A DNA stretch of 62,467 bases from an uncultured Candidatus Saccharibacteria bacterium (GTDB taxonomy: Bacteria; Patescibacteriota; Minisyncoccia; Phycocordibacterales; UBA2100), in contig CAYNQE010000002.1 in assembly GCA_964399345.1 (NCBI GenBank), positions 1-62,467 on the forward strand, read 5' to 3'. Shown here in pieces: positions 30,356 through 55,892 of the stretch; the stretch's first letter is position 1; each line of letters starts with the position of its first letter. Below the pieces are notes generated by a model. It ran no database searches. It was not told the DNA's origin and was given only the letters and a program-made list of their open reading frames with translations. Both the position numbers and the translations under genes were made by a program.

Positions 30356-31111
30356 CTATTCTTCGTGTGCTGTTAACACCTGCGGTTCGTTCTTTCCAAC
30401 AATTACAGTATGTTCAAACTGTGCACTCCTTGAACCATCAATCGTCTCGTAGAGCCATTGATCATCCATTAGTTTTACATCCCCCTTACCGCCAACGAGT
30501 ATCGGCTCAAGTGCTAAAACCATTCCTTCTTCTAATACAAGTCCTGTACCAGGAGCCCCGTATGTTGAAACAAACGGAGGTTCGTGAACTTCCTTTCCTA
30601 CTCCGTGTCCTCCTAATTCCTGTGGAGAATTGAATCCGTGTTTTTTTAATACTTGCTCTGATGCGTAACCAATATCACCAACGGTGTTTCCAACAATTGC
30701 AGCAGAAACTTGTGCATCGCGTGTCTCAAGGGCAGCATAAATTAATTTTTGATCCTTATCCGAGATATTCCCAACCCCTATTGTTATCGCTGAATCAGTA
30801 CAAAGATCTTTATGCCAAATTCCAGTGTCTAGCGTTAAAATATCTCCCTCTTTAAGATCATAACTTCCTGGAATACCGTGAACCACACCTTCATTTACTG
30901 AAATACAAATTACAGCGGGAAACGGCGGACTTCCAATACCTAAAAAAGAAGGCTTAACGGAATTCTCTTCCATTAATTCACGAGTGTAAGAGTCTAGTTC
31001 AATTAACGTGGTTCCTACAGTACATCTCTCTCCTACTTTAAAAAGTATCTCCGCTAATATCTTTCCTCCTTCAACTAAAGCTTCTCTTTCTTGTTGTGTT
31101 TTAACTATCAT
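30356..31111 (-). CDS. map: Type I methionine aminopeptidase
   Basis: Metal-ligand pattern ...DILTLDTG..., ...GHGVGKEVHEPP..., ...LALEPIL..., ...AQFEHTVIV. Start set at MIVKTQQEREAL (31111), overlapping the adk end by 11 nt. Confidence 0.9.
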   Translation of the reverse strand: MIVKTQQEREALVEGGKILAEILFKVGERCTVGTTLIELDSYTRELMEENSVKPSFLGIGSPPFPAVICISVNEGVVHGIPGSYDLKEGDILTLDTGIWHKDLCTDSAITIGVGNISDKDQKLIYAALETRDAQVSAAIVGNTVGDIGYASEQVLKKHGFNSPQELGGHGVGKEVHEPPFVSTYGAPGTGLVLEEGMVLALEPILVGGKGDVKLMDDQWLYETIDGSRSAQFEHTVIVGKNEPQVLTAHEE

Positions 31112-31691
31112 GTAGTTTTTTGACAATGTCTTTGTGAATTTCTTCAATTGAAGGTGCTCCATCGACATGATGTATCTTACAATCAAAGCTTTCAAACTTT
31201 TCTAGAATGGCTTTTGTGTGTTCTTTTGACCAACCTATTCTCTTTCGTATGTTTTCTTCAGAATCATCTCCTCTTCCCCTACCTAAGAGTCTCTCTGTTG
31301 CAGTATCTTCGTCTAGGTCGATAGTAACAACGTGATAGGGATTACGTTTGTATAATCTCATCATTGAATCGATCATTACGGTCTGGTTTTCGCGCCTTGC
31401 CGCCCCATCAAAAATCAAGTTCTCTTCCCCTGTGAAGTTTTCAACCATTTCCTGCCCTAATACGTAAACCGGCATGAAAGAAGGGAGTAGCTCTCCATCG
31501 GAAATTTCCTTTTTCACAATCTCGTTTGTGAATCCGCTCTGGGACATAAACTCACGAAGAAGTTGCCCTGTTTCAAGATACAGAGTATTAGTCTCTGTAT
31601 GCTCATCTAGATACTTCTTTAGAAGCCTGGCCTGAGTTCCCTTTCCTGAACCTTGTATTCCAAAAAATATTACTGTTATTGGTGTTTTCAT
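31101..31691 (-). CDS. adk: Adenylate kinase (short lid)
   Basis: P-loop GIQGSGKGTQ, LIFDGAARR, and lid RGRGDDSEENIRKR without a Cys4 zinc motif. Confidence 0.9.
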   Translation of the reverse strand: MKTPITVIFFGIQGSGKGTQARLLKKYLDEHTETNTLYLETGQLLREFMSQSGFTNEIVKKEISDGELLPSFMPVYVLGQEMVENFTGEENLIFDGAARRENQTVMIDSMMRLYKRNPYHVVTIDLDEDTATERLLGRGRGDDSEENIRKRIGWSKEHTKAILEKFESFDCKIHHVDGAPSIEEIHKDIVKKLHDS

Positions 31692-31695
31692 TGAC

Positions 31696-32259
31696 CTAAA
31701 GATACTTCTCTTTACTAAGAATGTCCATAACTTCGCTAATTGTTTCTTCTAGCTTTCCTTCTTTGTTTTCGACTATGTAATCATACGCATCAGTGTGGTG
31801 TAGCCACTCCTTCGTATATTTCATACGCTTTGCAATATGCTCTTCTGTAGCTCGATCGCGACGTCGAATTCGAGCCTCCAGAACGTCCGGCGTCGCGGTT
31901 ATCATAATTGAAATAATTTCAGGAAACTTTTCTTTTGCAGTTAGTACTCCTTTGTATTCAATCTTCCATACGCCAATTCCAGGTGCTTTATTAACCCTTT
32001 CAAGTTCCTCGCGTGTTACACCGTAGAGATTGTCATTATATTCACGCGCCCATTCAACCATTTCGCCATCCTTAATCTTTTCTTCAAACTCTTCAACTGA
32101 AATATAGTGATACGGATTACCTTCAGATTCTCCTTCTCTTTTTTTCCTTGTAGTTGTTGTTATGACCCGTGTTATTGTTGTAAGTTTTTGAAGACCTTCA
32201 ATTACAGAATCCTCCCCCGCACCAGATGGGCCTGAGATAATAACAATGTTTGTTTTCAT
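31696..32259 (-). CDS. gmk: Guanylate kinase homologue with a non-canonical P-loop (GPSGAGEDS)
   Basis: 187 aa. TTTRKKREGESEGNPYHYIS, YGVT, and overall Gmk-like collinearity. However, the Walker A Lys-Ser/Thr positions read Glu-Asp (codons GAG GAT confirmed on the DNA). Confidence 0.75.
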   Translation of the reverse strand: MKTNIVIISGPSGAGEDSVIEGLQKLTTITRVITTTTRKKREGESEGNPYHYISVEEFEEKIKDGEMVEWAREYNDNLYGVTREELERVNKAPGIGVWKIEYKGVLTAKEKFPEIISIMITATPDVLEARIRRRDRATEEHIAKRMKYTKEWLHHTDAYDYIVENKEGKLEETISEVMDILSKEKYL

Positions 32260-32271
32260 GAGAGTAGTATA

Positions 32272-32489
32272 TCAAAAGCCCCGCGAAAGAAATACGCGGG
32301 GCTTAAAATCAAGTGTGAACATCGGACCTGGTAGATCCAAGAATGCGGGTCCATCTCTGGACTCGCGTTCGCGGCTCTCCTGGAGGCGATCTATTGCCTC
32401 CTGATTGCAATCAGGACAAGGTCCGCAATTGCCATCTCAGGCCAGACGTATTTAACGTCTCCGCATGTGTTGCACATCTTAGTTACCAT
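32272..32489 (-). pseudogene. Possible frameshifted small zinc-ribbon gene
   Basis: Frame A (32391-32489) reads MVTKMCNTCGDVKYVWPEMAIADLVLIAIRRQ*. The -1 frame continues GNCGPCPDCNQEAIDRLQESRERESRDGPAFLDLPGPMF...*. Joining the frames near 32436 gives CxxC-x12-CxxCxxC. Confidence 0.35.
32278..32302 (-). terminator. Strong intrinsic terminator shape directly upstream of gmk
   Basis: Minus strand reads GCCCCGCG-TATTTCTTT-CGCGGGGC followed by TTTTGATAT. The gmk ATG is 18 nt further downstream. Confidence 0.7.
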
Positions 32490-32490
32490 C

Positions 32491-32691
32491 TTACTCTTGT
32501 GCTGCGGTCTTGTGTGTCAACACTTTCACTAGAACAATCGGCGCAAACAAAGAGATTAGAGTAGCTCCGATTACCCTCTCTGCCATATTCAGGCTTTGGG
32601 GAGCCGAAGAGATTACTGGCACAAACACAATTACTGAACATAATGCCCATCCTGCTGCAAAAATCGCTAAGAAGGTCCTTCGAAAATCCAT
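32491..32691 (-). CDS. Small two-TM membrane protein (66 aa)
   Basis: MDFRRTFLAIFAAGWALCSVIVFVPV...VIGATLISLFAPIVLVKVL. Start set at the internal Met, since the longer track ORF would overlap the secY 3' end. Confidence 0.45.
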   Translation of the reverse strand: MDFRRTFLAIFAAGWALCSVIVFVPVISSAPQSLNMAERVIGATLISLFAPIVLVKVLTHKTAAQE

Positions 32692-32749
32692 AACGTGCCC
32701 TTTCGCACTTGTTTCAACTGCCTTATATACCTTAAAATATAGAAAATAT

Positions 32750-34024
32750 CTAGTACTCCCGAATAGAAATCTGCGCTTCAACTCTCTTAACAATGTCTAG
32801 AATAACAGAAACTGCAATCAGTAACGCTGTTCCACCAATAGTTAGTGTAGTTATACCTGTAACTCCCTGCATGATAACGGGAAGAACGGCAATACCTCCT
32901 AGGAAGAGAGCTCCAACTAATGTAATGCGAGTTACAATGTCGGCAACATGACTTGTAGTTTGCTCACCCGGACGAATCCCAGGGATAAAGGCACCACTTT
33001 TTTGTAAGTTATTTGAAATACGGTTTGGATCAAATGTAACTGCTGTATAGAAATATGTGAAGAAGAACACCATTGCAAAGTATAGAGCACCGTAGATCCA
33101 CTGATTAGCAAGGCCATTAACTACAGCATTTGCCGCATTTGCTACAAATGGAACTACACTGTTTGCAAAGAAAGCGGCTATCACTTGTGGAAATAGTAAT
33201 ATTGAAAGTGCGAAAATAATTGGAATAACACCAGCTTGGTTTACTCTAATCGGTAAGTACGTAGAAACTCCACCAGATTGTTTTGATCCTCTAGTTTGAC
33301 GAGCGTACGTTATTGGAATTGGGCGTTCGGCTTCTGTTATAAACACAACTCCTGCAACAACAGCAGTAGATGCAACAGCAAATCCTAGATAAAGTGGAAT
33401 CTGTGATACATCAAATGTAAATACCAACTGACTAACAGCACCAGGAAGACTTGAAACGATTCCTGCGAAAATTATCAAAGAAACTCCGTTTCCAATACCA
33501 AATTCGGTGATAAGTTCACCAATCCACATAAGAAGGATGGATCCTGCTGCAATAACCAGCACGTTAGTCATCATTGCTGAGAATTCAAGTGGCGGAACGA
33601 TTCCGTTTTGTTGTAATAGTGTTAAAAAGGCAAATGACTGCATAAACGCAAGAGGTACCGTTAGATAACGTGACCATTGCGTGAACTTAGCGCGTCCTGC
33701 CTCACCCTCTTCTTGGTGCATAGCCTTCATTTTTGGAGAAAGTACCGTCATCAACTGCATAATGATTGACGCAGTAATAAACGGACCTACTCCGATCATA
33801 ACTATCGAAAGGTTTGATAGACCACCTCCTGAGAACAGGTTAAGAAGTCCTAAAAATTGGTTGTTTGAAAAGAATTCTTCAAGTCTTAATACATCTACTC
33901 CTGGAATTGGAATTGTAGCTAAAATACGAAACACGATTAATGCTCCTAACATGAATAGGATACGCTTACGCAATGATTCGTCTTTTACTACTAGCTTTAG
34001 TTTTCTGAAAAAAGTATTAATCAT
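32750..34024 (-). CDS. secY: Preprotein translocase subunit SecY
   Basis: 424 aa, 10 TM helices, with conserved GGLSNLSIVMIGVGPFITASIIMQL and a position after rplO. Confidence 0.95.
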   Translation of the reverse strand: MINTFFRKLKLVVKDESLRKRILFMLGALIVFRILATIPIPGVDVLRLEEFFSNNQFLGLLNLFSGGGLSNLSIVMIGVGPFITASIIMQLMTVLSPKMKAMHQEEGEAGRAKFTQWSRYLTVPLAFMQSFAFLTLLQQNGIVPPLEFSAMMTNVLVIAAGSILLMWIGELITEFGIGNGVSLIIFAGIVSSLPGAVSQLVFTFDVSQIPLYLGFAVASTAVVAGVVFITEAERPIPITYARQTRGSKQSGGVSTYLPIRVNQAGVIPIIFALSILLFPQVIAAFFANSVVPFVANAANAVVNGLANQWIYGALYFAMVFFFTYFYTAVTFDPNRISNNLQKSGAFIPGIRPGEQTTSHVADIVTRITLVGALFLGGIAVLPVIMQGVTGITTLTIGGTALLIAVSVILDIVKRVEAQISIREY

Positions 34025-34475
34025 GTTTTATCTCACCCCCTGCTTTTTCAATTGCAGCTATTGCAGTCTTAGATACTGCACATTTTTCAATTGTAAGTTT
34101 TATCTTAAGTTCTCCTGTTCCTAGGATTTTCACTTTTGGTGCTCTTCCTGCACTATTACTCACTATTCCCTTTTCTACAAGTGTAGTTGGGCTAACTACC
34201 TCTCCTGCCTTAAAGGCCTCTTCTAGTTTAGTTAGGTTAACTGGAGTGTGTGCTACTTTAGAGCTGTTTACCGTTCGAGAGCGGTTAATACCGTGTCCAC
34301 GTAGTTTAGGAAGCTTCTTGATCATGTCACGAAGCTCTGGTCGAACACCGTGTCCTCCGTGTTGCATCTGCCCTTTGTGACCACGTCCTGCAGTTTTACC
34401 ACACTTTCCACCGCGACCTATTCGTCGCTTTGTTTTTTGAGATGGGCTTTTTGTAAGTGAATTTAATCCAGTCAT
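34017..34475 (-). CDS. rplO: 50S ribosomal protein L15
   Basis: RRIGRGGKCGKTAGRGHKGQ motif. It directly follows rpsE with a 1-nt gap and no L30 gene between them. Confidence 0.95.
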   Translation of the reverse strand: MTGLNSLTKSPSQKTKRRIGRGGKCGKTAGRGHKGQMQHGGHGVRPELRDMIKKLPKLRGHGINRSRTVNSSKVAHTPVNLTKLEEAFKAGEVVSPTTLVEKGIVSNSAGRAPKVKILGTGELKIKLTIEKCAVSKTAIAAIEKAGGEIKHD

Positions 34476-34476
34476 A

Positions 34477-35004
34477 TTATTTTTCTAGTTTTTGTAACGC
34501 AATAATCGTAGCGCGTGCAATGTTTGTCTTGTTTTTACTTCGGGAAAGAATCTTTGAAGTAATATCAGTAACCCCTCCTAATTCAAGTACGGTTCGAACT
34601 GACGCTCCTGCAACAAGACCTCTACCTTGTGCTGGTCGAATCTGAATTAAGGTTGAGCCATACTTTGCATCAACATTGTGTGCAATGGAGTTTGATTCTG
34701 TTCTCTTTACAGTAATCATATTCTTTTTAGCATTTCGAATTGCTTTTTCGATTGCAAGAGCCGTGTCTCCTGCTTTTCCGGTTCCAACTCCAACTCTTCC
34801 TTTCTTGTCTCCGATAACCATAGCAACAGAGAAGCTAAATCGACGACCACCGGCCATCACACGAGTAACACGACGAATACCAATTATCTTCTGAGCAAAC
34901 TCAGGAGTACGGTCAAAACGTTCGCTCTTCTTGCGCCTATTAGTAGGACGCTTACGAGGCATTCGCTTTTCTACTTCTTTTGTTGATGTTTTCTCGTCTG
35001 TCAT
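34477..35004 (-). CDS. rpsE: 30S ribosomal protein S5
   Basis: IGIRRVTRVMAGGRRFSFSVAMVIGDKKGRVGVGTGKA is the classic S5 pattern. Confidence 0.95.
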   Translation of the reverse strand: MTDEKTSTKEVEKRMPRKRPTNRRKKSERFDRTPEFAQKIIGIRRVTRVMAGGRRFSFSVAMVIGDKKGRVGVGTGKAGDTALAIEKAIRNAKKNMITVKRTESNSIAHNVDAKYGSTLIQIRPAQGRGLVAGASVRTVLELGGVTDITSKILSRSKNKTNIARATIIALQKLEK

Positions 35005-35007
35005 ATA

Positions 35008-35355
35008 TTAAAATTTAAGTCCTGCTTCTCTTGCCGCGTCCGCAAAAGCTTTAATGTTACCTGTATAAAGATATCCTCCGCGGTCAAAAACCACTTCCTT
35101 TATCTTTTTGCCTTTAGCAAGTTCAGCAATAGCGGCTCCTGCTTCAATTGTTCGCTCTTTCTGAGTCTTCCCTTTCTGGATTGAAGTACTAACGGCTGCA
35201 AGAGTCACTTCCTTACCATCATCAATTAACTGAGCGTCAATCTTTGTGTTTGAACGAAAGATAGCAAGACGTGGACGTTTAGCAGTACCGATAACTTTTG
35301 ATCGAACTCTATTGTGTCGCCTAACTCTTCGTAATGTTTTTTCTTTAGTATCCAT
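35008..35355 (-). CDS. rplR: 50S ribosomal protein L18
   Basis: [35 protein letters not shown] and C-terminal [28 protein letters not shown]. Confidence 0.95.
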
Positions 35356-35358
35356 ATA

Positions 35359-35895
35359 TTAAGCAGCTGCCTTCTTACCTTCTTTACGTCGTACTATTTC
35401 GTCAACGTATCGAATTCCCTTTCCTTTGTAAGGTTCAGGCTTCTTAACGGCACGAATCTCAGAAGCAAATTGTCCAACATTTTCTTTACTCACTCCTTTA
35501 ACGCTGATTTGGTTCTTTTCAACCTCAACAGTTATGTCTTCAGGTACTGTAAGTTCAACTGGGTGTGAAAATCCTACTTGAAGCTTTAATGTATTCCCTT
35601 CAAGGGCTACCTTATATCCAATCCCTTCAACTGAAAGCTTCTTTTCAAAAGGTTCATTCACTCCTGCAACCATGTTTGAAACGTGAGATGCAAAAGTTCC
35701 CCAAAGTGCTTGTGAGAGTCTTGTTTCATTTTTTGGAGTAACTATTACCTCAGTTTCCTTAACTTCAATAGAAACAGCCTCGTGAATCTTTTTGGTAAGT
35801 TCACCTCCCTTTCCTTTTACGGTAAGAATATTATCCGAAACAGTTACTTCTGTTCCCTCTGGGATTATAATAGGTTGTTTTCCGATTCTGCTCAT
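35359..35895 (-). CDS. rplF: 50S ribosomal protein L6
   Basis: MSRIGKQPIIIPEGTEVTV... Start set at this Met rather than the 11-codon extension in the track. Confidence 0.95.
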   Translation of the reverse strand: MSRIGKQPIIIPEGTEVTVSDNILTVKGKGGELTKKIHEAVSIEVKETEVIVTPKNETRLSQALWGTFASHVSNMVAGVNEPFEKKLSVEGIGYKVALEGNTLKLQVGFSHPVELTVPEDITVEVEKNQISVKGVSKENVGQFASEIRAVKKPEPYKGKGIRYVDEIVRRKEGKKAAA

Positions 35896-35896
35896 A

Positions 35897-36292
35897 TTAG
35901 TAAATTTCAAATAAAGCCTCACCACCAACTTTCTCCTTACGAGCCTGTATGTTAGTCATAATCCCTTTAGGTGTTGAAAGGACAAGATGTCCGTTTCCGT
36001 ATCGTACTGGGAAAAGCTCATTGGATGCTTTGTAAACACGGCGCCCAGGCTTTGAAATTCTTTTAACGTCATCAATGCGATGAGTTCCGTCTTCTTTGTA
36101 CGCTAATTCGACGTGAATAGTCTTTCGAACCTTCTTTCCTTGTTTTTCAACATTCTTGATGTATCCGTTCTCTTTAAGAGTCTCAGCTACTGCCATTTTC
36201 ATTTTAGAAAATGGTATAGAAACAGTCTCGTGCTTTACGGCACCTGCATTCTTTAGACGAATTATGAAGTCTCCTATTGGGTCTCCTACCAT
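35897..36292 (-). CDS. rpsH: 30S ribosomal protein S8
   Basis: [16 protein letters not shown]... and C-terminal GGEALFEIY. Start set at M22 of the track ORF. Confidence 0.95.
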
Positions 36293-36471
36293 GATGATTT
36301 TTTTATTCCGGGAATGTGTCCTTCTAACGCTTCCTCTCGGAAACAAATACGACACAGGTCAAACGCTCGCATATAGCCTCGTGGACGTCCACACTTAAAG
36401 CAACGACGAACGACACGCGAATTGAACTTCGGTGTCTTTTCTGCTCTTGCGATCATTGACTTTTTTGCCAT
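36286..36471 (-). CDS. rpsN: 30S ribosomal protein S14, type Z (zinc-binding, 61 aa)
   Basis: [16 protein letters not shown]...[23 protein letters not shown], with CxxC...CxxC. Confidence 0.95.
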
Positions 36472-36481
36472 AAATTAAAAT

Positions 36482-36502
36482 TGACCCATTTTTAAAGGGT
36501 CA
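36482..36502 (-). promoter_or_regulatory. Leader hairpin with U-rich tail 10 nt upstream of the rpsN start
   Basis: Minus strand reads TGACCC-TTTAAAAAT-GGGTCA-ATTTTAATTT-ATG. Confidence 0.4.
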
Positions 36503-36566
36503 TTCATTCAAGTGTTTGTGTAATCCTGCTTACACTATGAATTGTCGACTCCTTTTAGGTGCGAGC

Positions 36567-36595
36567 ATATTACCTAAAATGGAGTGGGAAGTCAA
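36567..36595 (-). promoter_or_regulatory. Near-consensus sigma-70 promoter feeding rpsN and the distal spc genes
   Basis: Minus strand reads TTGACT (36590-36595), 17-nt spacer TCCCACTCCATTTTAGG, TAATAT (36567-36572). Confidence 0.6.
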
Positions 36596-36628: not shown

Positions 36629-37249
36629 TTAAAAACCAATTCCTTTTACTGCCTCCTTAAGTTTATTTTCAACTTCTCTAAAATCTACTTCACTACCCAC
36701 AGTAAACTTAATCGGTTCCTTTATAACATCTTCAAAAAAAACTAAACTTTTCAATACAACGTTCTCATCTAAACTTGGGAACTTTTGCTTTGTAAGTGTA
36801 AGTAACTCTGATAACGAAAATTCCTTAAGTAAGAAAAATATATCTATATAGTCTTTTTGTGTAGCACGTGAAGTAATAGCAGAGAGCTTCATACAAGCGA
36901 TATCTTCTTTTGAGGCTATGTTTATATATTGTTCTTTGATAAGGGGACTTAAAAGTGAGTACTTAAATGTCATGAAGCTCAACTTTATTGAACCGTCTAT
37001 AATCACTGACAACGTATTCTTTTCTTCTTGTGTTTTTAATAATTCGTGATCCTGAAACACTTCTCTTAATTCCTCAAAAAGTACATTCGTATCAATATCT
37101 TGATCGATAAAAAAATCAAAATCTACACTATCGCGATGACCTATTTGTAGAGCCAGTGCAGTACCTCCTGCAAGATAAAAACCTGCTGGTAATTTAGCCA
37201 AAAGTGGAAGAATTTCTTGCCTCTCTTTATCTAAAATATTATAAAACAT
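36629..37249 (-). CDS. Nucleotidyltransferase of the AbiEii/AbiGii (DUF1814-like) toxin family
   Basis: 206 aa from MFYNILDKERQEILPLL. Motif YLAGGTALALQIGHRDSVDFDFF matches the GGTAL...R.S.D.D signature. The start is 1 nt after the stop of a small upstream partner ORF. Confidence 0.65.
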   Translation of the reverse strand: MFYNILDKERQEILPLLAKLPAGFYLAGGTALALQIGHRDSVDFDFFIDQDIDTNVLFEELREVFQDHELLKTQEEKNTLSVIIDGSIKLSFMTFKYSLLSPLIKEQYINIASKEDIACMKLSAITSRATQKDYIDIFFLLKEFSLSELLTLTKQKFPSLDENVVLKSLVFFEDVIKEPIKFTVGSEVDFREVENKLKEAVKGIGF

Positions 37250-37250
37250 C

Positions 37251-37526
37251 TCAAGAAAATCTAGCTTCCCGCACTGGAGAAACTCCAAATATAAAAGACC
37301 AGAGAGCAAGAGATTTTTTGCTCCACACACTTTCAGGCGTAGTACTTAGTACTTCTTGAATATCATTATTGCTATATACACTAAAAAGCCAGTCAGTTGA
37401 CCTCTTAGAGCCAAAATTAAGTATGTTGTATATTATCAACTGTCTGTGGGTTTGTGTATCCAATTTTTTAATATCGTAAGACCAGAGAAACGGAGCCACA
37501 AATTTAGGTATTTCACTATTTTGCAT
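37251..37526 (-). CDS. Small partner ORF of the nucleotidyltransferase (putative antitoxin or adaptor)
   Basis: 91 aa from MQNSEIPKFVAPFLWSYDIKKLD... Extended -10 TGGTATAAT (TATAAT 37533-37538, minus) lies 6 nt upstream of this ATG. Confidence 0.5.
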   Translation of the reverse strand: MQNSEIPKFVAPFLWSYDIKKLDTQTHRQLIIYNILNFGSKRSTDWLFSVYSNNDIQEVLSTTPESVWSKKSLALWSFIFGVSPVREARFS

Positions 37527-38851: not shown

Positions 38852-38852
38852 A

Positions 38853-39161: not shown

Positions 39162-39165
39162 ATAT

Positions 39166-49774: not shown

Positions 49775-51455
49775 TGGTGTCAGTAAAGTCCCCTTCAACA
49801 CAATATAGTGTGTATGTAGTTTCTTCTGTTATCGCACCTGTTGTTTCATTACCACTTACTCCAGTCCAGTTATCTCCGTTTGTTCCTGACACTGAACAAT
49901 CAAGAGCAAGTTGAGTTGTCCATGTAATTGAAGTTGTACCTCCTGAGAGAACTAGTAGTGGTTGTGCTGCAACACTTCCTGTTGCAGGATCACACGTTGG
50001 AGCAGCCTCACTACAGGATCCATCACATTGTTGAGTTCCAACACTTCCAGATCCGCACCTATTAGATTCCTGACAAGAAGTCCCATATCCTGGAGGATTT
50101 GGTGGTGCTGTTGTACTACATGTGCCACCACACGTATACGTTCCTGGATTTTGAGAACCGCAGCTATTTTCTGGAACTGGATTACATGCTTGTCCGTAAT
50201 TTGAAGGAACAGAGGCACCAGAAGTACTACAAGAACCACTACATTGAATGGTCCCTGTGTCAGGCCCACACGCACTTGTTTCAGTACACGAATCTCCATA
50301 ATCAGAAGGAATTGTTGCTCCAGTTACGCTACACTGGCCATTACATTGAATTGTTCCTGTTCCTACACCACATGCATTTGTCTCGGTGCAAGAATCTCCT
50401 AAATTGGAAGGTGCGGAATTAGTAGCATTACATGAGTATGAACCGATTCCATTTACACATTCTTGACCTGTGCTTGACCCACAAGCGTTAGATATTGTGC
50501 AAGATTGTACTGTACATAATCCTCCGGGTCCATCAGGTCCTTCCCCTTCGTCCCCTTCGTTAACACCACCATAGTTATACCCAATTGAATCATCATAGTA
50601 ATAATCCACACCGTCTTGAGTGAAGGAGTAGCTCCCAACAGTATTTGTTAATTCGGTTGCAAACATTGCATGAAGTTCATTTCCACTAACAGTACTCCCT
50701 CCAGTATTTGTATCTCCTCCTAAGAAATCGCCAATCGTGTCAACAACATCTACAACAACATCCACGACGTCGTTTGCTACGTCTACTACAACATCTACAA
50801 CATCATTCGCTACATCCCCTATAGTATCTACAACCCCGTCAACTACGTCACCAATAGCGTCCACAACATCATTCACTACATCAACTACTGCATCTACAAT
50901 ACCTCCGCCATGATTTTTATTGTGCGCCAAAACACCGTCTGCAAAGAAGGCGTTGTATTTATCAACTGTCTTTAAGTTATAAGTTCGTAATTCTCCTTCA
51001 ACATATTCAATTGATTCAACTTCAACCCATCCATCTTCTGTGAATACCTCAGCTCCAATCTCTAATTGTGCAATTGGCCTTAGCTTTGTATCTTCGTAAG
51101 TAACTTCAGGAACGATAGATGCCCATCCCTTTTTGGTATAAAGAGGGTGTTCGTTTGTAACTCTAAGTAAGTCTCCATTAATTTCATAATACCCTTCTCT
51201 AATTGGGGATTCTAACTCTAAAACCTTTGCCTCAACAAAAGAATTTGTCTTAACATCATATGACCTTACAACATCTCCAACCTTAACTTCTTCGATGTTA
51301 ACAGAATCTCCATCTGGAAGAGAAATCTGAGTACCTGCTGGAAAACAAGAATCTCCACCACCTTCTCCACCGGCTGAAGAAACTACAGGAACTGCCAAAA
51401 GAGCAGCCGAAAACATTAGAAAAATCAGTTTTCTAGAAAGTTGTAAAGAAATCAT
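49737..51455 (-). CDS. Secreted protein: signal peptide, Hint (intein-like) domain, Val/Asp repeat, Cys-rich modules, conserved C-terminal module
   Basis: 572 aa.
- Signal peptide MISLQLSRKLIFLMFSAALLAVPVVSSA.
- Hint domain aa 37-179, from CFPAGTQISLPDG through VTNEHPL to FFADGVLAHN.
- VD-rich repeats aa 186-243.
- About 5 copies of a ...YG.SC.E.N.CG.G.GT.QC.G.CS... module.
- The protein ends in PAWQEF. Confidence 0.8.
   Translation of the reverse strand: MISLQLSRKLIFLMFSAALLAVPVVSSAGGEGGGDSCFPAGTQISLPDGDSVNIEEVKVGDVVRSYDVKTNSFVEAKVLELESPIREGYYEINGDLLRVTNEHPLYTKKGWASIVPEVTYEDTKLRPIAQLEIGAEVFTEDGWVEVESIEYVEGELRTYNLKTVDKYNAFFADGVLAHNKNHGGGIVDAVVDVVNDVVDAIGDVVDGVVDTIGDVANDVVDVVVDVANDVVDVVVDVVDTIGDFLGGDTNTGGSTVSGNELHAMFATELTNTVGSYSFTQDGVDYYYDDSIGYNYGGVNEGDEGEGPDGPGGLCTVQSCTISNACGSSTGQECVNGIGSYSCNATNSAPSNLGDSCTETNACGVGTGTIQCNGQCSVTGATIPSDYGDSCTETSACGPDTGTIQCSGSCSTSGASVPSNYGQACNPVPENSCGSQNPGTYTCGGTCSTTAPPNPPGYGTSCQESNRCGSGSVGTQQCDGSCSEAAPTCDPATGSVAAQPLLVLSGGTTSITWTTQLALDCSVSGTNGDNWTGVSGNETTGAITEETTYTLYCVEGDFTDTTTVQVAPAWQEF
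50727..50900 (-). repeat. Coding imperfect tandem repeat (Val/Asp-rich, roughly 12-15 nt sub-units)
   Basis: Encodes IVDAVVDVVNDVVDAIGDVVDGVVDTIGDVANDVVDVVVDVANDVVDVVVDVVDTIGDF. The DNA shows reiterated GTnGAY/ACATC-type units. Confidence 0.7.
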
Positions 51456-51531
51456 GAATAATTTATGTTAAATATAATGTACATTCATTGTACACCCTAC
51501 AAATTCAACTCTTTTCCGTTATGTGAACAAC

Positions 51532-51559
51532 AAAAAACCCGTCTTTCGACGGGTTTTTT
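51532..51559. terminator. Rho-independent terminator after fusA
   Basis: AAAAAACCCGTC-TTTC-GACGGGTTTTTT. Confidence 0.8.
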
Positions 51560-51560
51560 G

Positions 51561-53696
51561 TTAGTTTCTTGCGGCTTGTATGTCGTCTGCGATATTACGT
51601 GGAACCACCGCATAGTGAGAGAATTCCATAGTCGCATTTGCGCGCCCTTCTGTCATAGATCGTAGCGTAGTGGTATATCCAAACATCTCAGAAAGCGGAA
51701 CTTTAGCAGTAACTACCTTTGCATTACCTCGATCGTCCATTCCCTCAACTTGTCCACGCATTGAACTTAAGTTTCCGTTAACATCTCCCATAAACTGCTC
51801 AGGGGTTGTTACTTCTACCTTCATAACAGGCTCAAGAAGCACAGGTTGTGCACCTTTAGCTGCTTGCTGGAAAGCTTGAGATGCTGCAATCTTGAAAGCA
51901 ATTTCTGAGGAGTCAACATCGTGGAAAGAACCGTCGAATAGGTCAACTGAAATGTCTGCCATTGCGTATCCGGCAACAATTCCTCGCTCCATAGCCTCCT
52001 TAATACCCTTCTTAATTGCAGGAATGTATTCTGCTGGGATAATTCCACCCTTAATGTTGTTAATAAACTCAAAGTGATCTTCTCTATCAGTATTTTTTGC
52101 AATTTTTGCTCCCTCTTCAATTTCTTCAAGAGGTTTAATTCTAATTTTAACGTGTCCGTATTGTCCACGACCACCAGTTTGTTTGATGTATTTAACTTCA
52201 GCAGAATTTTCTCCTTGGATAGTCTCTCGGTAGGCAACTTGTGGCTTACCTAGCTCTGCTTCAACATTAAATTCTCTCTTCATACGGTCAACTAGAATTT
52301 CAAGGTGAAGTTCTCCCATTCCTGAGATAATAGTTTCAAGAGTTTCCGGGTCGGAAGAAACTTTAAAGGTAGGGTCTTCGTCTGAAAGTTTGTTTAGTGC
52401 AATACCCATCTTTTCTTGGTCTTGCTTAGTCTTAGGTTCAATTCGTGCGGCAACAACAGGCTCAGGGAATGTCATTTCCTCAAGAATTATAGGGTTCTCT
52501 TCGTCACAAAGTGTGTGACTAGTCTTTGTCTCCTTTAATCCTACGGCTGCTGCAATTTCTCCGGTGTAAACTTCTTCAACTTCCTCTCGCTTATCAGCTT
52601 GAAGACGAACAATACGTCCGATTCGTTCTTTTTTCTTTGTTGTTGCGTTATACACGTACGATCCAGCCTTAACAACTCCTGAATATACTCGGAAGAATGT
52701 AAGCTGTCCTACAAATGGGTCGGTTTGAAGTTTAAAGGCAAGGGATGCTAGAGGCTCATCATCTGATGGTGCTCTTTCAATCTCCTCTTCTGTCTTAGGA
52801 TCAATTCCTTTAACTGAAGGAAGGTCAAGCGGACTTGGAAGGAAGTCTACAACACCGTCTAGTACTAATTGAACTCCTTTGTTCTTTAGTGCTGAACCAC
52901 AGTAGACAAGAAATACATCGTTTGCGATAACCGCCTTACGTAGCAGTACCTTAAGTTCATCATATGATGGTTCGTTTCCTTCAAGATATGCATTCATAGC
53001 ATCCTCATCTTGTTCAACAATCTTTTCTACAAGCTCGTCGTGATATTTCTTGGCGTCTTCCTTAAGATTTTCTGGAATTTCTCCCTCGATTACATTCATT
53101 CCCATTTCACCATCAAATGTGTAGGCCTTCATCTTTAAAAGATCTACCGCTCCTTCATGATTTTCCTCCTCTCCAATTGGGATTTGGAAACGAATAGCTT
53201 TGTCAGACAGTCGCTCTACAATACTTGCGTATGATCGCTCAAATGACGCTCCTGTTCGGTCTAGCTTGTTTATAAAACAGATGCGCGCAACGTTTGCCTC
53301 TTCAGCGTAGCGCCAGTTTGTTTCTGATTGTGGTTCAACTCCGGCTACGGCGTCAAAAACTACAACAGCACCATCAAGCACTCTCATAGATCGCTTAACT
53401 TCGGCTGTGAAGTCGATGTGTCCTGGTGTATCAATAATGTTTAGAGGGTATTTGTCTTCCCCTTCTGAGTAAGTAGGTTGCCAATCACACGAAATAGCAG
53501 CGGCCGTAATTGTAATACCACGTTCTCTTTCTTGCTCCATCCAGTCAGTAACAGTCTCACCATCGTGAACTTCTCCAATCTTGTGACTCATTCCAGTATA
53601 AAAAAGAACACGTTCGCTGGTTGTTGTTTTACCAGCGTCGACGTGTGCTACGATTCCGAAATTTCGGAGTTTTTCTAGTGGATAGTTACGAGCCAT
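51561..53696 (-). CDS. fusA: Elongation factor G
   Basis: 711 aa. NFGIVAHVDAGKTTTSERVL, DTPGHIDF, NKLDR, and domains III-V present. Confidence 0.97.
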   Translation of the reverse strand: MARNYPLEKLRNFGIVAHVDAGKTTTSERVLFYTGMSHKIGEVHDGETVTDWMEQERERGITITAAAISCDWQPTYSEGEDKYPLNIIDTPGHIDFTAEVKRSMRVLDGAVVVFDAVAGVEPQSETNWRYAEEANVARICFINKLDRTGASFERSYASIVERLSDKAIRFQIPIGEEENHEGAVDLLKMKAYTFDGEMGMNVIEGEIPENLKEDAKKYHDELVEKIVEQDEDAMNAYLEGNEPSYDELKVLLRKAVIANDVFLVYCGSALKNKGVQLVLDGVVDFLPSPLDLPSVKGIDPKTEEEIERAPSDDEPLASLAFKLQTDPFVGQLTFFRVYSGVVKAGSYVYNATTKKKERIGRIVRLQADKREEVEEVYTGEIAAAVGLKETKTSHTLCDEENPIILEEMTFPEPVVAARIEPKTKQDQEKMGIALNKLSDEDPTFKVSSDPETLETIISGMGELHLEILVDRMKREFNVEAELGKPQVAYRETIQGENSAEVKYIKQTGGRGQYGHVKIRIKPLEEIEEGAKIAKNTDREDHFEFINNIKGGIIPAEYIPAIKKGIKEAMERGIVAGYAMADISVDLFDGSFHDVDSSEIAFKIAASQAFQQAAKGAQPVLLEPVMKVEVTTPEQFMGDVNGNLSSMRGQVEGMDDRGNAKVVTAKVPLSEMFGYTTTLRSMTEGRANATMEFSHYAVVPRNIADDIQAARN

Positions 53697-53794
53697 AATA
53701 ATTTTTTAAAATAAAAACGCCACGACATGTGAGCGTGGCATTAGAGTATCCCAAAATGGGAAAAGTGCAAGGAAACTATCATGATATTATGTAA

Positions 53795-54407
53795 ATGATG
53801 GACAATCCAACAATATATTGTGAGTGGTTAAGTGGAGCGATTCATCAACCAATTAATACTATTTCCAGTATTGTATTTTTAATTGTCGCAGTACTTCTGT
53901 ACAGATTAATAAGGAAAACAGGAACTCAAGATTGGCTGTTAAAACTATTACCATACTCTATTGCACTAATCGGATTGAGTAGTGCTTTTTGGCACTATAG
54001 CGTTAGGTGATGTATTAGATACAGTTTCAATTGGGATATTTGCTCTTTTAATCAGTTTAATACTGGCGCAAAAGTTGTTTACTAGAATTTCTTATCAAGT
54101 TGTTTCAATACTGGGGATATTCTCTATAGCATTTTTACTAGAGCAACTACCGTATTTAAACGGTTCTCTCGTATATCTTTTCTTGTTTATCACCTTAGGT
54201 TTGATTTTGTATTTGCTGTCACATAAAACTTCTGTAGCAACAATTATTATGTGCTTACTGTTTTTGGGTTTGTTAGCACGAATTCTTGATATCCAAGCTT
54301 GTAATACACTAGTAATCGGAACGCATTTTATTTGGCATATTGCTGTTGCTCTGGCAGTGTTTTTTATAGTCAAGATTGTTATTCAATCTCCACGTACAAT
54401 GCATTGA
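53795..54407 (+). pseudogene. Seven-TM CREST-superfamily (ceramidase/PAQR-like) membrane hydrolase gene split by a frameshift
   Basis: ORF 53795-54010 carries the SxxxH motif (SAFWH). The overlapping ORF 53982-54407, in another frame, carries the TM3 Asp (GDVLD) and the HxxxH motif (HFIWH). The frames must be joined between 53996 and 54008. Confidence 0.5.
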
Positions 54408-54432
54408 CACCGATTTGTACAAAATGTACAAT
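54404..54432 (+). promoter_or_regulatory. Consensus sigma-70 promoter of the Phd/MazF module, with a leaderless start
   Basis: TTGACA (54404-54409), 17-nt spacer, TACAAT (54427-54432), then 6 nt to the ATG at 54439. Two TGTACA palindromes (54416-54421, 54425-54430) lie in the spacer. Confidence 0.7.
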
Positions 54433-54438
54433 ATCAAT

Positions 54439-54693
54439 ATGAAAACAATTTCAACAACAAATGCACGTAAATCACTCAGTACGATAGTAGATTCTGTTAA
54501 AACAACAGGCCGATCTGTTGCTATCGGAAGAAGAAACAAGCCAGAAGTTGTTATTTCCCCCTACCCTAATACTTATAATAAGGATGTAAGTGATGCAGTT
54601 AACCTTGCAGCAGCGTCTGGAACATTCGACTTTCTTTACGACGAACCCGATCTATATAGTGAAAAAGACATCAAATGGCGTTATGAAGCATAA
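54439..54693 (+). CDS. Phd/YefM-family antitoxin
   Basis: 84 aa. MKTISTTNARKSLSTIVDSVKTTGRSVAIGRRNKPEVVISPY is the typical Phd/YefM N-terminal fold pattern. Confidence 0.75.
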   Translation: MKTISTTNARKSLSTIVDSVKTTGRSVAIGRRNKPEVVISPYPNTYNKDVSDAVNLAAASGTFDFLYDEPDLYSEKDIKWRYEA

Positions 54694-55006
54694 AAAGGGA
54701 GATCTTATATTAGTGGACTTTCCATTTACAGATTTCTCGGGAGAAAAGCGTAGACCAGCTCTTATTATAGGAGTGTCTGGGGATCACGTAGTTATTGCTT
54801 TTATAACTACCAGACGAATAGATAACTCGCATTGGTTTTTATCAATTGAACCAACGCCGAAAAACGGCTTACTAGCTAAATCTTTCGTGCGTTGTGACAA
54901 AATCCTATCGCTTGATATAAAACTTGCACAAAATGCACTAGGAAACACTTCTAAGACTATTACCGACAAAGTAGACGTTAAAATACGGAAGCTTCTTAAA
55001 ATATAG
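54683..55006 (+). CDS. MazF/PemK-family toxin endoribonuclease
   Basis: 107 aa. KKGDLILVDFPFTDFSGEKRRPALII...SFVRCDKILSLD is the typical PemK pattern. It overlaps the antitoxin gene by 11 nt. Confidence 0.78.
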   Translation: MKHKKGDLILVDFPFTDFSGEKRRPALIIGVSGDHVVIAFITTRRIDNSHWFLSIEPTPKNGLLAKSFVRCDKILSLDIKLAQNALGNTSKTITDKVDVKIRKLLKI

Positions 55007-55008
55007 GG

Positions 55009-55473
55009 TTACCACGCAAAGTGTGCAAAAGCCTTGTTGGCTTCAGCCATCTTGTGAGTGTTAACTTTCTTTGTAAATGCTTCTCCTTCTTCAACAGATG
55101 CCTTCTTTATCTCTTCTGCTAGTCGTTTATACATTTCATTTCCTTTTCCTGACTTGGCTGATGCTACGATCCATCGTAGTGCAAGAGAAAGACGTCGCTC
55201 TGGACGAACTTCTCGCGGAACCTGGTAGTTAGCACCACCAACACGTCGTGAGCGTACTTCCATTAAAGGAGCTACGTTTTTAATAGCTGTTTCAAATATA
55301 ACAAGAGGATCGTCTCCCTTTGCCTTTAGTTCGTCAAAGGCACTGTAAACAATCTTTCGTGCAGTATCCTTCTTTCCTCGCTCCATTATGTAGTTAATAA
55401 GCTTGGTTACTTTAACAGACCCATATACTGAGTCTTCTACAATGTTGTGCTTTTTCTTAAGTGGTCGTCTCAT
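55009..55473 (-). CDS. rpsG: 30S ribosomal protein S7
   Basis: PLMEVRSRRVGGANYQVPREVRPERR, C-terminal AFAHFAW. Confidence 0.96.
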   Translation of the reverse strand: MRRPLKKKHNIVEDSVYGSVKVTKLINYIMERGKKDTARKIVYSAFDELKAKGDDPLVIFETAIKNVAPLMEVRSRRVGGANYQVPREVRPERRLSLALRWIVASAKSGKGNEMYKRLAEEIKKASVEEGEAFTKKVNTHKMAEANKAFAHFAW

Positions 55474-55478
55474 ATATA

Positions 55479-55892
55479 TTATTCTGCTTTAGGCTTAGGG
55501 TTTCCGTATTTAGATCGTGCGCTTCGTCGTGCACCAACTCCTTCGGCATCTAGTCGTCCTCGAACAACTGTGTATCGAACACCAATGTCTTTTACTCGCC
55601 CACCTCTGATCATTACAACTGAGTGTTCTTGTAGGTTGTGTCCCATTCCTGGAATGTAGGCTGTAACTTCCATTCCGTTTGTAAGTCGAACACGTGCAAT
55701 CTTACGAATAGCTGAGTTAGGCTTACGTGGAGTCTTTGTAGTTACCTTTACACATACTCCTCTCTTGAATGGAGACGGGTACTTAGACGGCTTGTTCTTC
55801 AAACTATTAAAACCACGACGAAGTGCCACCGTCTTGCTTGTTTTAGCGATGTTTTTTCGTCCTTTTTTTACTAGTTGATTTATTGTTGCCAT
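55479..55892 (-). CDS. rpsL: 30S ribosomal protein S12
   Basis: [13 protein letters not shown]...[19 protein letters not shown]. Confidence 0.97.

Follow-up and report, generated by a model that had tools for sequence, protein, structure and literature searches.

Predicted internal promoters and variable gene cargo at fixed junctions of the ribosomal protein array in Paceibacteria

We analyzed the ribosomal protein array (str-S10-spc-secY-adk-map) on a 62,467-nucleotide (nt) contig assigned to an uncultured Candidatus Saccharibacteria bacterium (CAYNQE010000002.1, assembly GCA_964399345.1; the whole stretch is called the window here), whose best relatives are metagenome-assembled genomes (MAGs) labelled Kaiserbacteria, Paceibacteria or Patescibacteria. 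The array keeps its canonical gene order on the minus strand but is interrupted at six junctions by 0.38 to 4.5 kb of non-ribosomal DNA each, and five of these junctions proved to be variable in two sets of related loci. The permissive junctions form a fixed set and do not extend to the whole array, and at least three of them carry predicted lineage-wide internal promoters. We propose that such promoters probably make the junctions between blocks neutral docking sites at which cargo turns over.

RESULTS

Canonical gene order with six interruptions

All 27 core genes from rpsL to map were identified with Pfam and NCBIfam profiles. On the minus strand, the order is rpsL, rpsG, fusA, tuf, rpsJ, rplC, rplD, rplW, rplB, rpsS, rplV, rpsC, rplP, rpmC, rpsQ, rplN, rplX, rplE, rpsN, rpsH, rplF, rplR, rpsE, rplO, secY, gmk, adk and map. 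This confirmed the preliminary description of this DNA, which had reported the canonical order and placed non-ribosomal DNA at rpsG/fusA, fusA/tuf, rpsJ/rplC, rplB/rpsS, rplE/rpsN and secY/adk; the array is thus not contiguous in the canonical sense. The other 20 junctions are overlaps or spacers of at most 5 nt, except for the 33 nt of tuf/rpsJ. Spacers were measured from sensible start codons, the listed open reading frames (ORFs) being over-extended for tuf, rpsS, rplC, rpsH, rplF, rplP and map. The blocks are the following.

55479-55892, minus strand: rpsL (S12), start of block 1; NCBIfam TIGR00981, E = 4e-53
55009-55473, minus strand: rpsG (S7), end of block 1; NCBIfam TIGR01029, E = 2.6e-54
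51561-53696, minus strand: fusA (EF-G), block 2; NCBIfam TIGR00484, 1056 bits
45362-46945, minus strand: tuf (45752-46945) and rpsJ (45362-45718), block 3; NCBIfam EF-Tu and S10
42165-44634, minus strand: rplC-rplD-rplW-rplB, block 4, spacers of 2 to 4 nt; NCBIfam
38312-41712, minus strand: rpsS-rplV-rpsC-rplP-rpmC-rpsQ-rplN-rplX-rplE, block 5; Pfam and NCBIfam
32750-36471, minus strand: rpsN-rpsH-rplF-rplR-rpsE-rplO-secY, block 6; NCBIfam and Pfam
30356-31691, minus strand: adk (31101-31691) and map (probable start at about 31114), end of the array; Pfam ADK and Peptidase_M24

No rpmD gene (L30) was identified between rpsE and rplO (window 34477-35004 and 34017-34475), and absence of L30 is known for Candidate Phyla Radiation bacteria. 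The rpsN gene is of the short, zinc-ribbon, type Z form. A 22-nt direct repeat, 21 of 22 positions identical, occurs at 45710-45731, where it spans the rpsJ start codon, and at 51648-51669, inside the 3' end of fusA; it is unlikely to be a chance event and is the one notable pair returned by a repeat search of 30 to 56.5 kb.

Independent contigs cross four of the six junctions

Conserved genes and hairpins are places where metagenomic assemblies can break or be joined wrongly, and the window could be an assembly or binning artefact in which ribosomal fragments and foreign DNA were joined into a chimera. One of the independent contigs described below does end inside a palindrome, at 37766-37799. 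However, four contigs from other assemblies were 100% identical to the window, and together they covered 37770-42326 and 44683-56599. Three were Logan contigs of SRR5211068 (window 46185-53337, 37770-42326 and 53310-56586), and one was an ENA contig (ERZ27249630) whose fetched stretch matched 44683-56599. The junctions rplB/rpsS, rpsJ/rplC, fusA/tuf and rpsG/fusA were fully crossed; at rplE/rpsN the contigs extended only into that end of the islet which holds RelB, and secY/adk was not covered. In addition, the same junction layout recurred in about 160 independent loci, and both GC content (about 40%) and GC skew, which is negative throughout, were uniform along the window. The probability of a chimera, which the preliminary description had named as a threat to its reading, is in our judgment vanishingly small.

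The same junctions are open across the class

Two sets of loci were compared, both sampled within Paceibacteria: 80 loci around L2, one genome per GTDB species (genome set), and 80 loci around S10 from metagenome contigs (metagenome set). Window proteins were mapped onto the loci by tblastn, and cross-matches between EF-G and EF-Tu were removed by overlap filtering. One locus (L081) appears to be the same contig as another (L005), since gene order and gap sizes are identical. The metagenome scan with S10 returned no relative closer than those of the genome scan. Gaps of more than 300 bp were distributed as follows.

rpsG/fusA: 8/12 in the genome set, 8/14 in the metagenome set
fusA/tuf: 18/24 and 17/24
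rpsJ/rplC: 12/63 and 18/50
rplB/rpsS: 45/71 and 17/28
rplE/rpsN: 25/41 and 1/8
These five junctions pooled: 108/211 and 61/124
All other junctions pooled: 9/1029 and 10/397

The difference between the five hot junctions and the others was highly significant in both sets (Fisher P = 8e-84 in the genome set and 6e-34 in the metagenome set), the same pairs of core genes flanking the inserts in each. For rplE/rpsN, six more loci of the metagenome set were open-ended, with rplE as the last array gene found and more than 600 bp of contig following. In contrast, the classical boundaries of the Escherichia coli operons were cold, with gaps of more than 300 bp in 1/59 and 6/77 loci at tuf/rpsJ and in 0/63 and 0/19 at rpsQ/rplN.

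Contig ends gave the same picture. In the genome set, contigs continuing for more than 600 bp without the next array gene were seen only after rplB (6 loci), rplE (12), secY (4) and map (8) and, in the opposite direction, only before tuf (24), rplC (3), fusA (3) and rpsL (8). When the loci were sorted by clade, fusA/tuf and rplE/rpsN were open almost everywhere, rplB/rpsS was open in all clades but one, and rpsJ/rplC was open only in the clade of the window and three others. Inserts measured 0.3 to 8.5 kb, and gap size ranged from 0 to more than 8 kb inside single clades. In four loci, the next block was absent from the whole fetched flank, namely, 10 kb after rplB (L068) and more than 6 kb after rplE (L053, L032 and L075); in these loci, the insert is very large or the blocks have separated completely.

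Other loci, such as L013, L004, L097 and L098, also had five or six occupied junctions. The layout of the window is thus typical of the class and not exceptional. The preliminary description had called the density of insertions unusual, which does not hold, since within the class it is the norm; its proposal that the array serves this lineage as a tolerated landing zone stands, given that the same five junctions vary in both locus sets and that the nearest relative carries a different cassette at rplE/rpsN.

Predicted promoters and terminators at the block borders

Promoters and terminators were called by consensus or conservation and are therefore predictions. Those that border the blocks of the window are listed here.

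53697-53775 (within), minus strand: promoter-like region of fusA, TTGCAC…TACTCT; sequence
51529-51562, no strand assigned: bidirectional intrinsic terminator after fusA, 15-pair stem and T-run; sequence
47083-47114, minus strand: terminator of the 347-amino-acid (aa) gene, with the -35 box of the tuf promoter in its loop; sequence
47076-47103, minus strand: tuf promoter, TTGACT-16-TACCAT; sequence
45320-45351, minus strand: intrinsic terminator after rpsJ, hairpin AAAAAACCGCCC…GGGCGGTTTTTT; sequence
44635-44750 (within), minus strand: rplC promoter, TTGCAC-16-TATACT, moderately consensus-like and conserved; sequence
41788-41816, minus strand: rpsS promoter, TTGACT-17-TAGTAT, 9/12 consensus; sequence, conserved in relatives
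37766-37799, no strand assigned: perfect 17+17-nt palindrome followed by TTTGACT, the probable terminator of block 5 plus relB; sequence
36567-36595, minus strand: rpsN promoter, TTGACT-17-TAATAT, 9/12 consensus; sequence, conserved in relatives

We then used a stringent pattern (at least 5/6 match to TTGACA, a spacer of 16 to 18 and TAnnnT, within 200 nt upstream of starts taken from the alignment), for which the background expectation is 4.5%. It was found upstream of rpsS in 87/99 loci, of rpsN in 36/49 and of tuf in 48/97, and upstream of every other array gene in at most 21%. Near-consensus promoters had been reported at rpsL, rplC, rpsS and rpsN: those of rpsS and rpsN were borne out, that of rplC is weaker but conserved, and rpsL has only a -10-like box, TAGTAT. 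The terminators reported after fusA, rpsJ and the 347-aa gene are all present in the sequence.

In clade 3, rplB/rpsS usually measures about 105 nt and is essentially the promoter alone, and about 11 nt separate the -10 box from the ATG; in one locus, stop codon, promoter and ATG are packed within 35 nt. Since this clade has the promoter, usually without cargo, the rpsS promoter appears to predate the insertions. The rpsS block of clade 3 may be transcribed as a leaderless or near-leaderless mRNA. The loci with this arrangement are L019, L023, L027, L029, L030, L034, L038, L043, L044, L053, L060 and L064, and their promoter is of the type TTGACT-17-TAGTAT.

Cassettes of the window

The inserts of the window include toxin-antitoxin (TA) modules, secreted proteins and enzymes, as well as genes in decay.

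53795-54407, plus strand: Ceramidase/CREST-like membrane gene with a +1 frameshift (ORFs 53795-54010 and 53982-54407); weak Pfam Ceramidase match
54404-55006, plus strand: Phd/MazF type II TA module (phd 54439-54693, mazF 54683-55006); Pfam
54404-54432, plus strand: promoter of Phd/MazF, TTGACA-17-TACAAT, 11/12 consensus match; sequence
49737-51455, minus strand: 572-aa secreted protein; translation, weak Pfam Hint-family matches
48257-49774, plus strand: Lnt-like apolipoprotein N-acyltransferase; Pfam LNT_N, E = 2.6e-15, and CN_hydrolase, E = 5e-9
47126-48169, minus strand: 347-aa secreted Cys-rich paralogue; BLASTP against the 572-aa protein
44808-45248, minus strand: 146-aa secreted ORF at rpsJ/rplC; signal-peptide-like N terminus, judged by eye
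41872-42157, plus strand: 91-aa antisense ORF at rplB/rpsS with an AGGAGG ribosome-binding site; sequence, homologues at the same junction
42136-42157, plus strand: terminator hairpin of the 91-aa ORF; sequence
38013-38273, minus strand: RelB/DinJ antitoxin; Pfam RelB, E = 4e-12, and TIGR02384, E = 2e-19
37930-38016, minus strand: remnant of a RelE/YafQ-like toxin, 28 codons; ORF, assigned by eye
36629-37526, minus strand: DUF6922 (37251-37526) and AbiEii nucleotidyltransferase toxin (36629-37249); Pfam and PADLOC
31696-32749, minus strand: secY/adk filler, about 490 bp plus gmk; ORFs and Pfam
32491-32691, minus strand: 66-aa two-helix membrane ORF, with short broken ORFs nearby; ORF
31696-32259, minus strand: gmk; Pfam Guanylate_kin, E = 3e-33

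The rpsG/fusA junction spans 53697-55008. The N-terminal ORF of the ceramidase-like gene, which encodes a seven-transmembrane protein, matched Pfam Ceramidase with an E value of 2.7e-5, and the joined protein covered profile positions 22-230 of 259 (E = 2.1e-5, below the gathering score); the split pair is probably a pseudogene. Phd/MazF is a complete module (PhdYeFM_antitox, E = 3.7e-9; PemK_toxin, E = 9.6e-12; genes overlapping by 11 nt), and the stop codons of mazF and of the convergent rpsG are 2 bp apart. At fusA/tuf, the 572-aa protein has a signal peptide, a Hint/intein-like domain, Asp/Val-rich repeats and Cys-rich repeats, and it shares a C-terminal domain with the 347-aa protein (BLASTP E = 2e-23). 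The lnt-like gene between them (NCBIfam lnt, 110.5 bits, under the cutoff of 132.9) is convergent with, and overlaps, the 572-aa gene. The insert at rpsJ/rplC consists of a terminator, the 146-aa ORF and a hairpin, followed by the rplC promoter and leader.

At rplE/rpsN, relB is intact while the downstream toxin ORF ends after 28 codons, leaving no intact RelE/YafQ toxin. The AbiEii toxin (Pfam E = 4.6e-15; PADLOC E = 9e-8) has no AbiEi-family antitoxin upstream; the upstream gene is DUF6922, which had no PADLOC match and may be an alternative antitoxin to AbiEii. Between the RelB remnant and this pair lies a 32-codon ORF (MTNPIRPVWDEDLEGDLWKRPKDHDKKHELPE; 37609-37707, minus strand) with a strong ribosome-binding site, AGGAGGAGG, and a hairpin downstream, possibly a gene for a small protein.

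Mean GC content was 0.39 for the cassettes and 0.40 to 0.41 for flanks and core. The only outliers were AbiEii/DUF6922 (0.32 to 0.36) and the ceramidase-like pseudogene, both of low GC, and the 146-aa ORF, of high GC (0.49; 0.48 at third codon positions, GC3). Since cassette GC is mostly native-like, composition does not separate foreign from native DNA, and the comparison of cassettes with flanks suggested in the preliminary description was uninformative in this respect.

Cargo turnover between close relatives

An exact look-up with L2 gave no match, and the closest relative was reached through a homologue of L5 with 99% amino acid identity. It led to three records, L161 (ENA TULL18-1 scaffold_1198), L162 (GCA_002401495.1) and L163, which we treated as one organism because identities and break points relative to the window were the same; L165 is a second contig of GCA_002401495.1. 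This was the one relative found within about 91% DNA identity, the value for its core DNA. The blocks of L161 collinear with the window (47827-45281, 44760-42137, 41826-38312 and 36595-33825) end at cassette borders. At rplE/rpsN, collinearity stops at the rplE stop codon (38312) and resumes at the first base of the rpsN -35 box (36595); in place of the 1716-nt TA islet, L161 has 1418 nt with two unrelated genes, one for a secreted protein of 296 aa and one, on the other strand, for a membrane protein of 125 aa. Where the window has the 146-aa and 91-aa ORFs, L161 has ORFs of 168 aa (secreted) and 85 aa that can no longer be aligned with them. The trio of 572-aa, lnt and 347-aa genes is in place in GCA_002401495.1, with paralogues 56% (572 aa) and 70% (347 aa, L161/L165) identical where core proteins are about 99% identical.

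Two further pairs of loci showed turnover. Between L035 and L036 (90.5% identical), a clean insertion of 1183 bp is bordered precisely by the rplE terminator hairpin (AAAATCCCCGAAAGGGGATTTT) on one side and by the -35 box of rpsN on the other, and no direct or inverted repeats bound the L036 insert. L076 and L078, whose flanks are 98% identical, differ by 1.6 kb at rplB/rpsS and contain rearranged paralogues there. Over all loci, 290 gap ORFs of at least 60 aa fell into 221 clusters, 191 of them singletons. Cargo at these junctions is thus diverse, and it differs between loci at 91 to 98% flank identity.

These data bear on the possibility of an ancient, fixed architecture, in which an ancestor acquired the extra genes once and passed them on vertically, with no ongoing turnover. 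Besides the lnt/Cys-rich trio, several genes fit it. The 91-aa ORF has homologues at rplB/rpsS, on the same strand, in L005 (E = 1e-7), L006 (E = 3e-5) and L164 (E = 3e-7). Likewise, L003, L004 and L164 have gmk between secY and adk, L003 (15868-17038) and L164 (16359-17533) with tandem paralogues, where the window has a single copy. In L164, whose L5 is 83% identical, the order is secY, a 558-aa gene, gmk, gmk, adk, map and a gene for a TraG-like protein; orthologues of the TraG-like protein that follows map in the window stand after map in L164 (18910-20543, 62% identical) and L064 (13479-14132, 38%). In clade 5, dgkA (18 loci), a phosphoribosyltransferase-like gene and pyrF are recurrent residents of rplB/rpsS. 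Since L164, and L003 for gmk, carry them at the same place, gmk and the TraG-like gene are family-level fixtures; these two, the 91-aa ORF and the trio are, judging from their positions in relatives, old residents of the window. Whether the roughly 490-bp spacer between secY and gmk might be a remnant of the second gmk of L003 and L164 was considered as well, and no similarity was found.

However, an architecture fixed in an ancestor is contradicted by the preponderance of singleton clusters, by complete cargo replacement at rplE/rpsN at about 91% DNA identity, by the indels between L035 and L036 and between L076 and L078 and by the spread of gap sizes within clades. It fails at rplE/rpsN, rpsG/fusA and rpsJ/rplC unless the differing cassettes are orthologues diverged beyond recognition, and we judge it quite improbable for the array as a whole. 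The alignment with relatives that the preliminary description had called for thus revealed differing inserts.

Nature of the cargo

The 134 cargo representatives matched 102 Pfam families, among them HepT/MNT TA pairs, methyltransferases, NUDIX, dihydroorotate dehydrogenase, orotidine 5'-phosphate decarboxylase, pyruvate kinase, ABC transporters and protein O-mannosyltransferase. Some recur, such as pyruvate kinase in L007, L008 and L010 and an ATP-grasp gene in L011, L012 and L025. Selfish and accessory genes, both of which had been invoked for this landing zone, do occur, but selfish genes do not predominate, the cargo of relatives also including dgkA, pyrF, pyruvate kinase, ATP-grasp ligases and ABC transporters.

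Delivery of the cargo by mobile elements that target junction hairpins or promoters (site-specific integrative elements, transposons or homing systems) might be suspected, since inserts land beside hairpins and TA modules are typical passengers of mobile DNA. Moreover, the same families are found at different hot junctions: relatives of the 572/347-aa proteins occur at rpsJ/rplC in L001 (1073-3295), L006 (4092-5975) and L156 and at rplB/rpsS in L062 (11423-19281), and a DUF6922-AbiEii pair, 53% identical, lies just upstream of tuf in L054. The Cys-rich family is also represented at L165:1-1617; it is fast-evolving, and some members have an N- or C-terminal Hint/intein-like domain. Against such elements, Pfam found no integrase, transposase or relaxase domain in any window cassette, the strongest Pfam matches of the 134 cargo representatives included none of these either, and a repeat search of the window from 30 to 56.5 kb found no direct or inverted repeats bounding the cassettes. 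Much of the cargo is ordinary metabolism, and its composition is mostly native-like. Delivery by mobile elements is therefore unlikely.

Functional recruitment, by which inserted genes would be selected for coexpression with the translation apparatus instead of being neutral passengers, finds some support in orientation, 68% of the cargo ORFs of at least 100 aa being co-oriented with the array, and in the existence of stable residents. In addition, gmk lies beside adk, RelB follows rplE directly with no terminator, and MazF and RelE-family toxins are known to target translation. However, the 102 Pfam families are unrelated and have no common theme, the frameshifted gene and the truncated toxin of the window speak for decay and not for maintenance, several cassettes run antisense to the array and have a promoter and terminator of their own, and cargo turnover is rapid. 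We regard recruitment as a very unlikely explanation.

Structured leaders upstream of the blocks

Four blocks of the window are preceded by predicted structured 5' leaders.

53697-53775, minus strand: fusA leader, hairpin GCCACG…CGTGGC and U-tract ending about 25 nt before the ATG; fold z = -3.45
46946-47103, minus strand: tuf leader, 5' hairpin and U6, AGCAGUUCUCGCGCCUCUAC box; fold z = -3.37
44635-44750, minus strand: rplC leader, GCUAAGUUCCC…GGGAACCAAUGG helix, hairpin CACGGC…GCCGUG and U-tract; conservation
36472-36595, minus strand: rpsN leader, 95 nt, ending in GACCC…GGGUC and a U-tract; fold z = -2.4

All four folded better than shuffled sequences, with z scores of -3.5 (fusA), -3.4 (tuf), -2.4 (rpsN) and -2.0 (rplC), significantly so for tuf and fusA. 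In the clade of the window, the rpsN, rplC and fusA leaders have a G+C hairpin and U-tract shortly before the AUG, while in the tuf leader these stand at the 5' end. The fusA layout was the same in L002, L004, L013 and L016, with the hairpin and U-tract 20 to 60 nt before the AUG, and the tuf leader was kept in L161, L164, L002, L005, L006 and L016.

Three clade-specific architectures of the rpsN leader were distinguished, in clade 5, in clade 3 and in the clade of the window. That of clade 5 (L035, L036, L047, L049, L052, L056, L059, L061, L066, L074 and L080) comprises two helices with 16 pairs, 94.8% paired, 7 of the pairs showing compensatory changes; its covariation was 0.353, compared to 0.148 for shuffled alignments (reached by 0/500) and at most 0.12 for slid controls. 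The rplC leader was found wherever rpsJ/rplC is open (20 loci). Its core helix, GCUAyGUCCC…GGGACCAAUGG, was 90.8% paired over 17 loci, with a covariation of 0.246 compared to 0.127 (reached by 0/500) and double changes at three pairs only. Thus, at rpsN and rplC, a conserved, covarying structured leader lies directly upstream of a ribosomal protein block.

In several rplC leaders, CCAAUGG is complementary to CCAUUGG in the 5' arm of the hairpin, which hints at an antiterminator/terminator switch. The rplC leader is possibly an attenuator responsive to L4 or L3, and the rpsN leader is a candidate autoregulatory leader of the S8/S14 type. No Rfam family matched these leaders, either at the gathering score or at E ≤ 1.

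The region after map and other parts of the window

The array does not continue with infA-rpmJ-rpsM-rpsK-rpsD-rpoA-rplQ after map, as the canonical one would. Searches by tblastn with E. coli InfA, L36, S13 and S11 found no match to infA, rpmJ, rpsM or rpsK after map, in the window or in any locus. In their place stands the following gene, already reported as VirD4-like.

27606-30332, minus strand: TraG/VirD4-like ATPase, 908 aa, after map; Pfam TraG-D_C, E = 1.7e-6

An orthologue combines DUF8128 with TraG-D_C, and the window protein also matched the PADLOC model 'mad8' (E = 9e-15). Given its place in distant family members, we take the gene to be a conserved syntenic neighbor and not a mobile insert, and the protein resembles a housekeeping or defence ATPase of the chromosome more than a component of a conjugative element.

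No transfer RNA (tRNA) gene was found at 30 to 56 kb of the window. Outside the array, a tRNA-Ile gene (anticodon TAT; 11236-11311, minus strand) adjoins ftsH, and a transfer-messenger RNA gene (13768-14151, plus strand) adjoins an smpB-like gene, both protein genes being called by eye from N-terminal sequences. A RelE/ParE-type TA-like pair, assigned in the same way, lies at 19701-20180 (minus strand); TA modules are therefore not confined to the array. Also outside the array, 8632-11180 (minus strand) encodes two further secreted proteins rich in Cys, of 199 and 648 aa, that have CxTCTR-like motifs, and ORFs in the window flanks resemble ComEC and type IV pilus proteins, as judged from their N-terminal sequences.

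DISCUSSION

A model of neutral docking sites

In the model that we favor, the window is part of a Kaiserbacteria-like chromosome of Paceibacteria, and the array of this class, its gene order kept, would no longer form two or three long operons but would be cut into the transcription blocks [rpsL-rpsG], [fusA], [tuf-rpsJ], [rplC-rplD-rplW-rplB], [rpsS…rplE], [rpsN…secY] and [adk-map]. Each downstream block would have its own sigma-70-type promoter, to which the clade of the window would add a structured leader ending in a hairpin and U-tract, and expression of the next block would be independent of read-through or translational coupling. Insertion inside a block would be lethal or costly because the genes there are 0 to 5 nt apart or overlap. 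Conversely, insertions would be nearly neutral if they fall downstream of a block's last stop codon or terminator and upstream of the -35 box that serves the following block, since that block needs neither read-through nor coupling. The boundaries would thereby become long-lived docking sites at which any genes may accumulate, diverge fast and be swapped or lost, and inserts might sometimes grow until the blocks separate. Cargo may enter by illegitimate or homology-facilitated recombination, with conserved ribosomal genes as anchors, and the leaders could be attenuators responsive to ribosomal proteins.

Neutral docking fits the exact borders seen in L161 and between L035 and L036, the lack of recombinases and bounding repeats and the mixture of native-like and outlier composition. 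We infer both that neutrality causes the junction specificity and that the promoters are active; the internal promoters look ancestral to the sampled Paceibacteria.

Several observations weigh against this account. The stringent promoter pattern was not enriched upstream of rplC (7%) or fusA (8%), and the conserved TTGCAy…TAyaCT boxes of these two genes in the clade of the window were recognized by eye. Clade 3 has the rpsS promoter yet seldom cargo, so that a promoter alone is insufficient for a busy junction. At least one cassette is inside a transcription unit and not between units, as relB begins 38 nt past the rplE stop codon with no terminator in between. Rare inserts occur at cold junctions, of 3.1 kb at rplC/rplD (L075) and 2.2 kb at rplX/rplE (L141), as well as in the 6/77 loci at tuf/rpsJ. 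Finally, kinship among loci inflates the counts, many events being shared by descent, and the sampled taxa are Paceibacteria only.

A broader reading is more tentative, and we put it at somewhat below even chances: that Paceibacteria have re-partitioned the array into six or seven autonomous units at nonclassical positions, each with a conserved promoter and an undescribed attenuator-type leader RNA (the rplC leader, the clade-specific rpsN leaders and those of tuf and fusA), and one clade with a near-leaderless rpsS, the boundaries being class-wide hotspots of recombinase-free gene exchange. If true, this would provide a natural map of the sites at which essential operons can be split and a new set of regulatory RNAs of ribosomal proteins in the Candidate Phyla Radiation.

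The textbook case of a gene order frozen by selection is the S10-spc array, which is also the backbone of phylogenies based on 16 ribosomal proteins and of MAG quality checks. Variable kilobases at fixed internal junctions reveal where the constraint lies, namely, on blocks and not on the whole array, and they suggest a testable rule by which an internal promoter may make a junction of an essential operon permissive to insertion. There is also a practical pitfall, in that one can predict the points at which ribosomal contigs of these organisms break or take up foreign genes. The junctions point, moreover, to accessory genes of episymbionts (secreted Cys-rich and Hint-domain proteins, Lnt and TA modules) and to candidate leader RNAs of ribosomal proteins.

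Comparison with known systems

In E. coli, the S10 operon has a leader that mediates transcription attenuation by L4, and the spc operon has an S8 operator. The leaders of the window resemble such elements (surveyed by Fu et al. 2013, PMC3616713) in being structured and in having a hairpin and U-tract near the first start codon. They differ in preceding other genes, namely, rplC, rpsN, tuf and fusA, and in resembling the E. coli elements neither in sequence nor by Rfam search, and their role as attenuators is putative.

In archaea, the cluster S12-S7-EF2-EF1alpha-S10 has the S10 gene as its last member, and the following cluster opens with L3. The tight tuf-rpsJ unit and the boundary between rpsJ and rplC recall this organization; however, it has no counterpart of the rplB/rpsS and rplE/rpsN boundaries, and since the host here is bacterial, the resemblance may be coincidental. 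For the Candidate Phyla Radiation, our full-text literature search found no paper on such a pattern, which does not prove that there is none.

Many of the gene-transfer hotspots bounded by core genes have no recognizable mobile element, and these are thought to depend on homologous recombination within the bounding genes (Oliveira, Touchon, Cury & Rocha 2017, PMC5635113). Our junctions are alike in that gain and loss are concentrated in a few core-flanked intervals with rapid turnover. Those hotspots were defined within the pan-genomes of species, whereas here the same intervals are hot across a whole class and lie inside the most syntenic gene array known. The window cassettes do not qualify as integrative mobile elements or genomic islands, as they contain no integrase or transposase domain, no repeats bound them and the window has no tRNA gene at 30 to 56 kb.

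A close parallel is the invasion-separation route described for operon concatenations (Brandis 2021, PMC8046335; see also 2019, PMC6735719), in which a conserved cluster of translation genes is invaded at an operon boundary by a few ordinary genes and may later separate, with no need for long-distance transfer. Our loci show small inserts at boundaries of transcription units and, in many cases, more than 5 to 10 kb of contig with no next block. The examples in that work lie mostly between classical operons (rpoBC/str and str/S10), whereas here the str/S10 (tuf/rpsJ) and S10/spc (rpsQ/rplN) boundaries are cold and the breaks fall inside the str, S10 and spc operons as defined in E. coli, at rpsG/fusA, fusA/tuf, rpsJ/rplC, rplB/rpsS and rplE/rpsN. 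Moreover, an occupied junction is the rule in this class and not a rare event.

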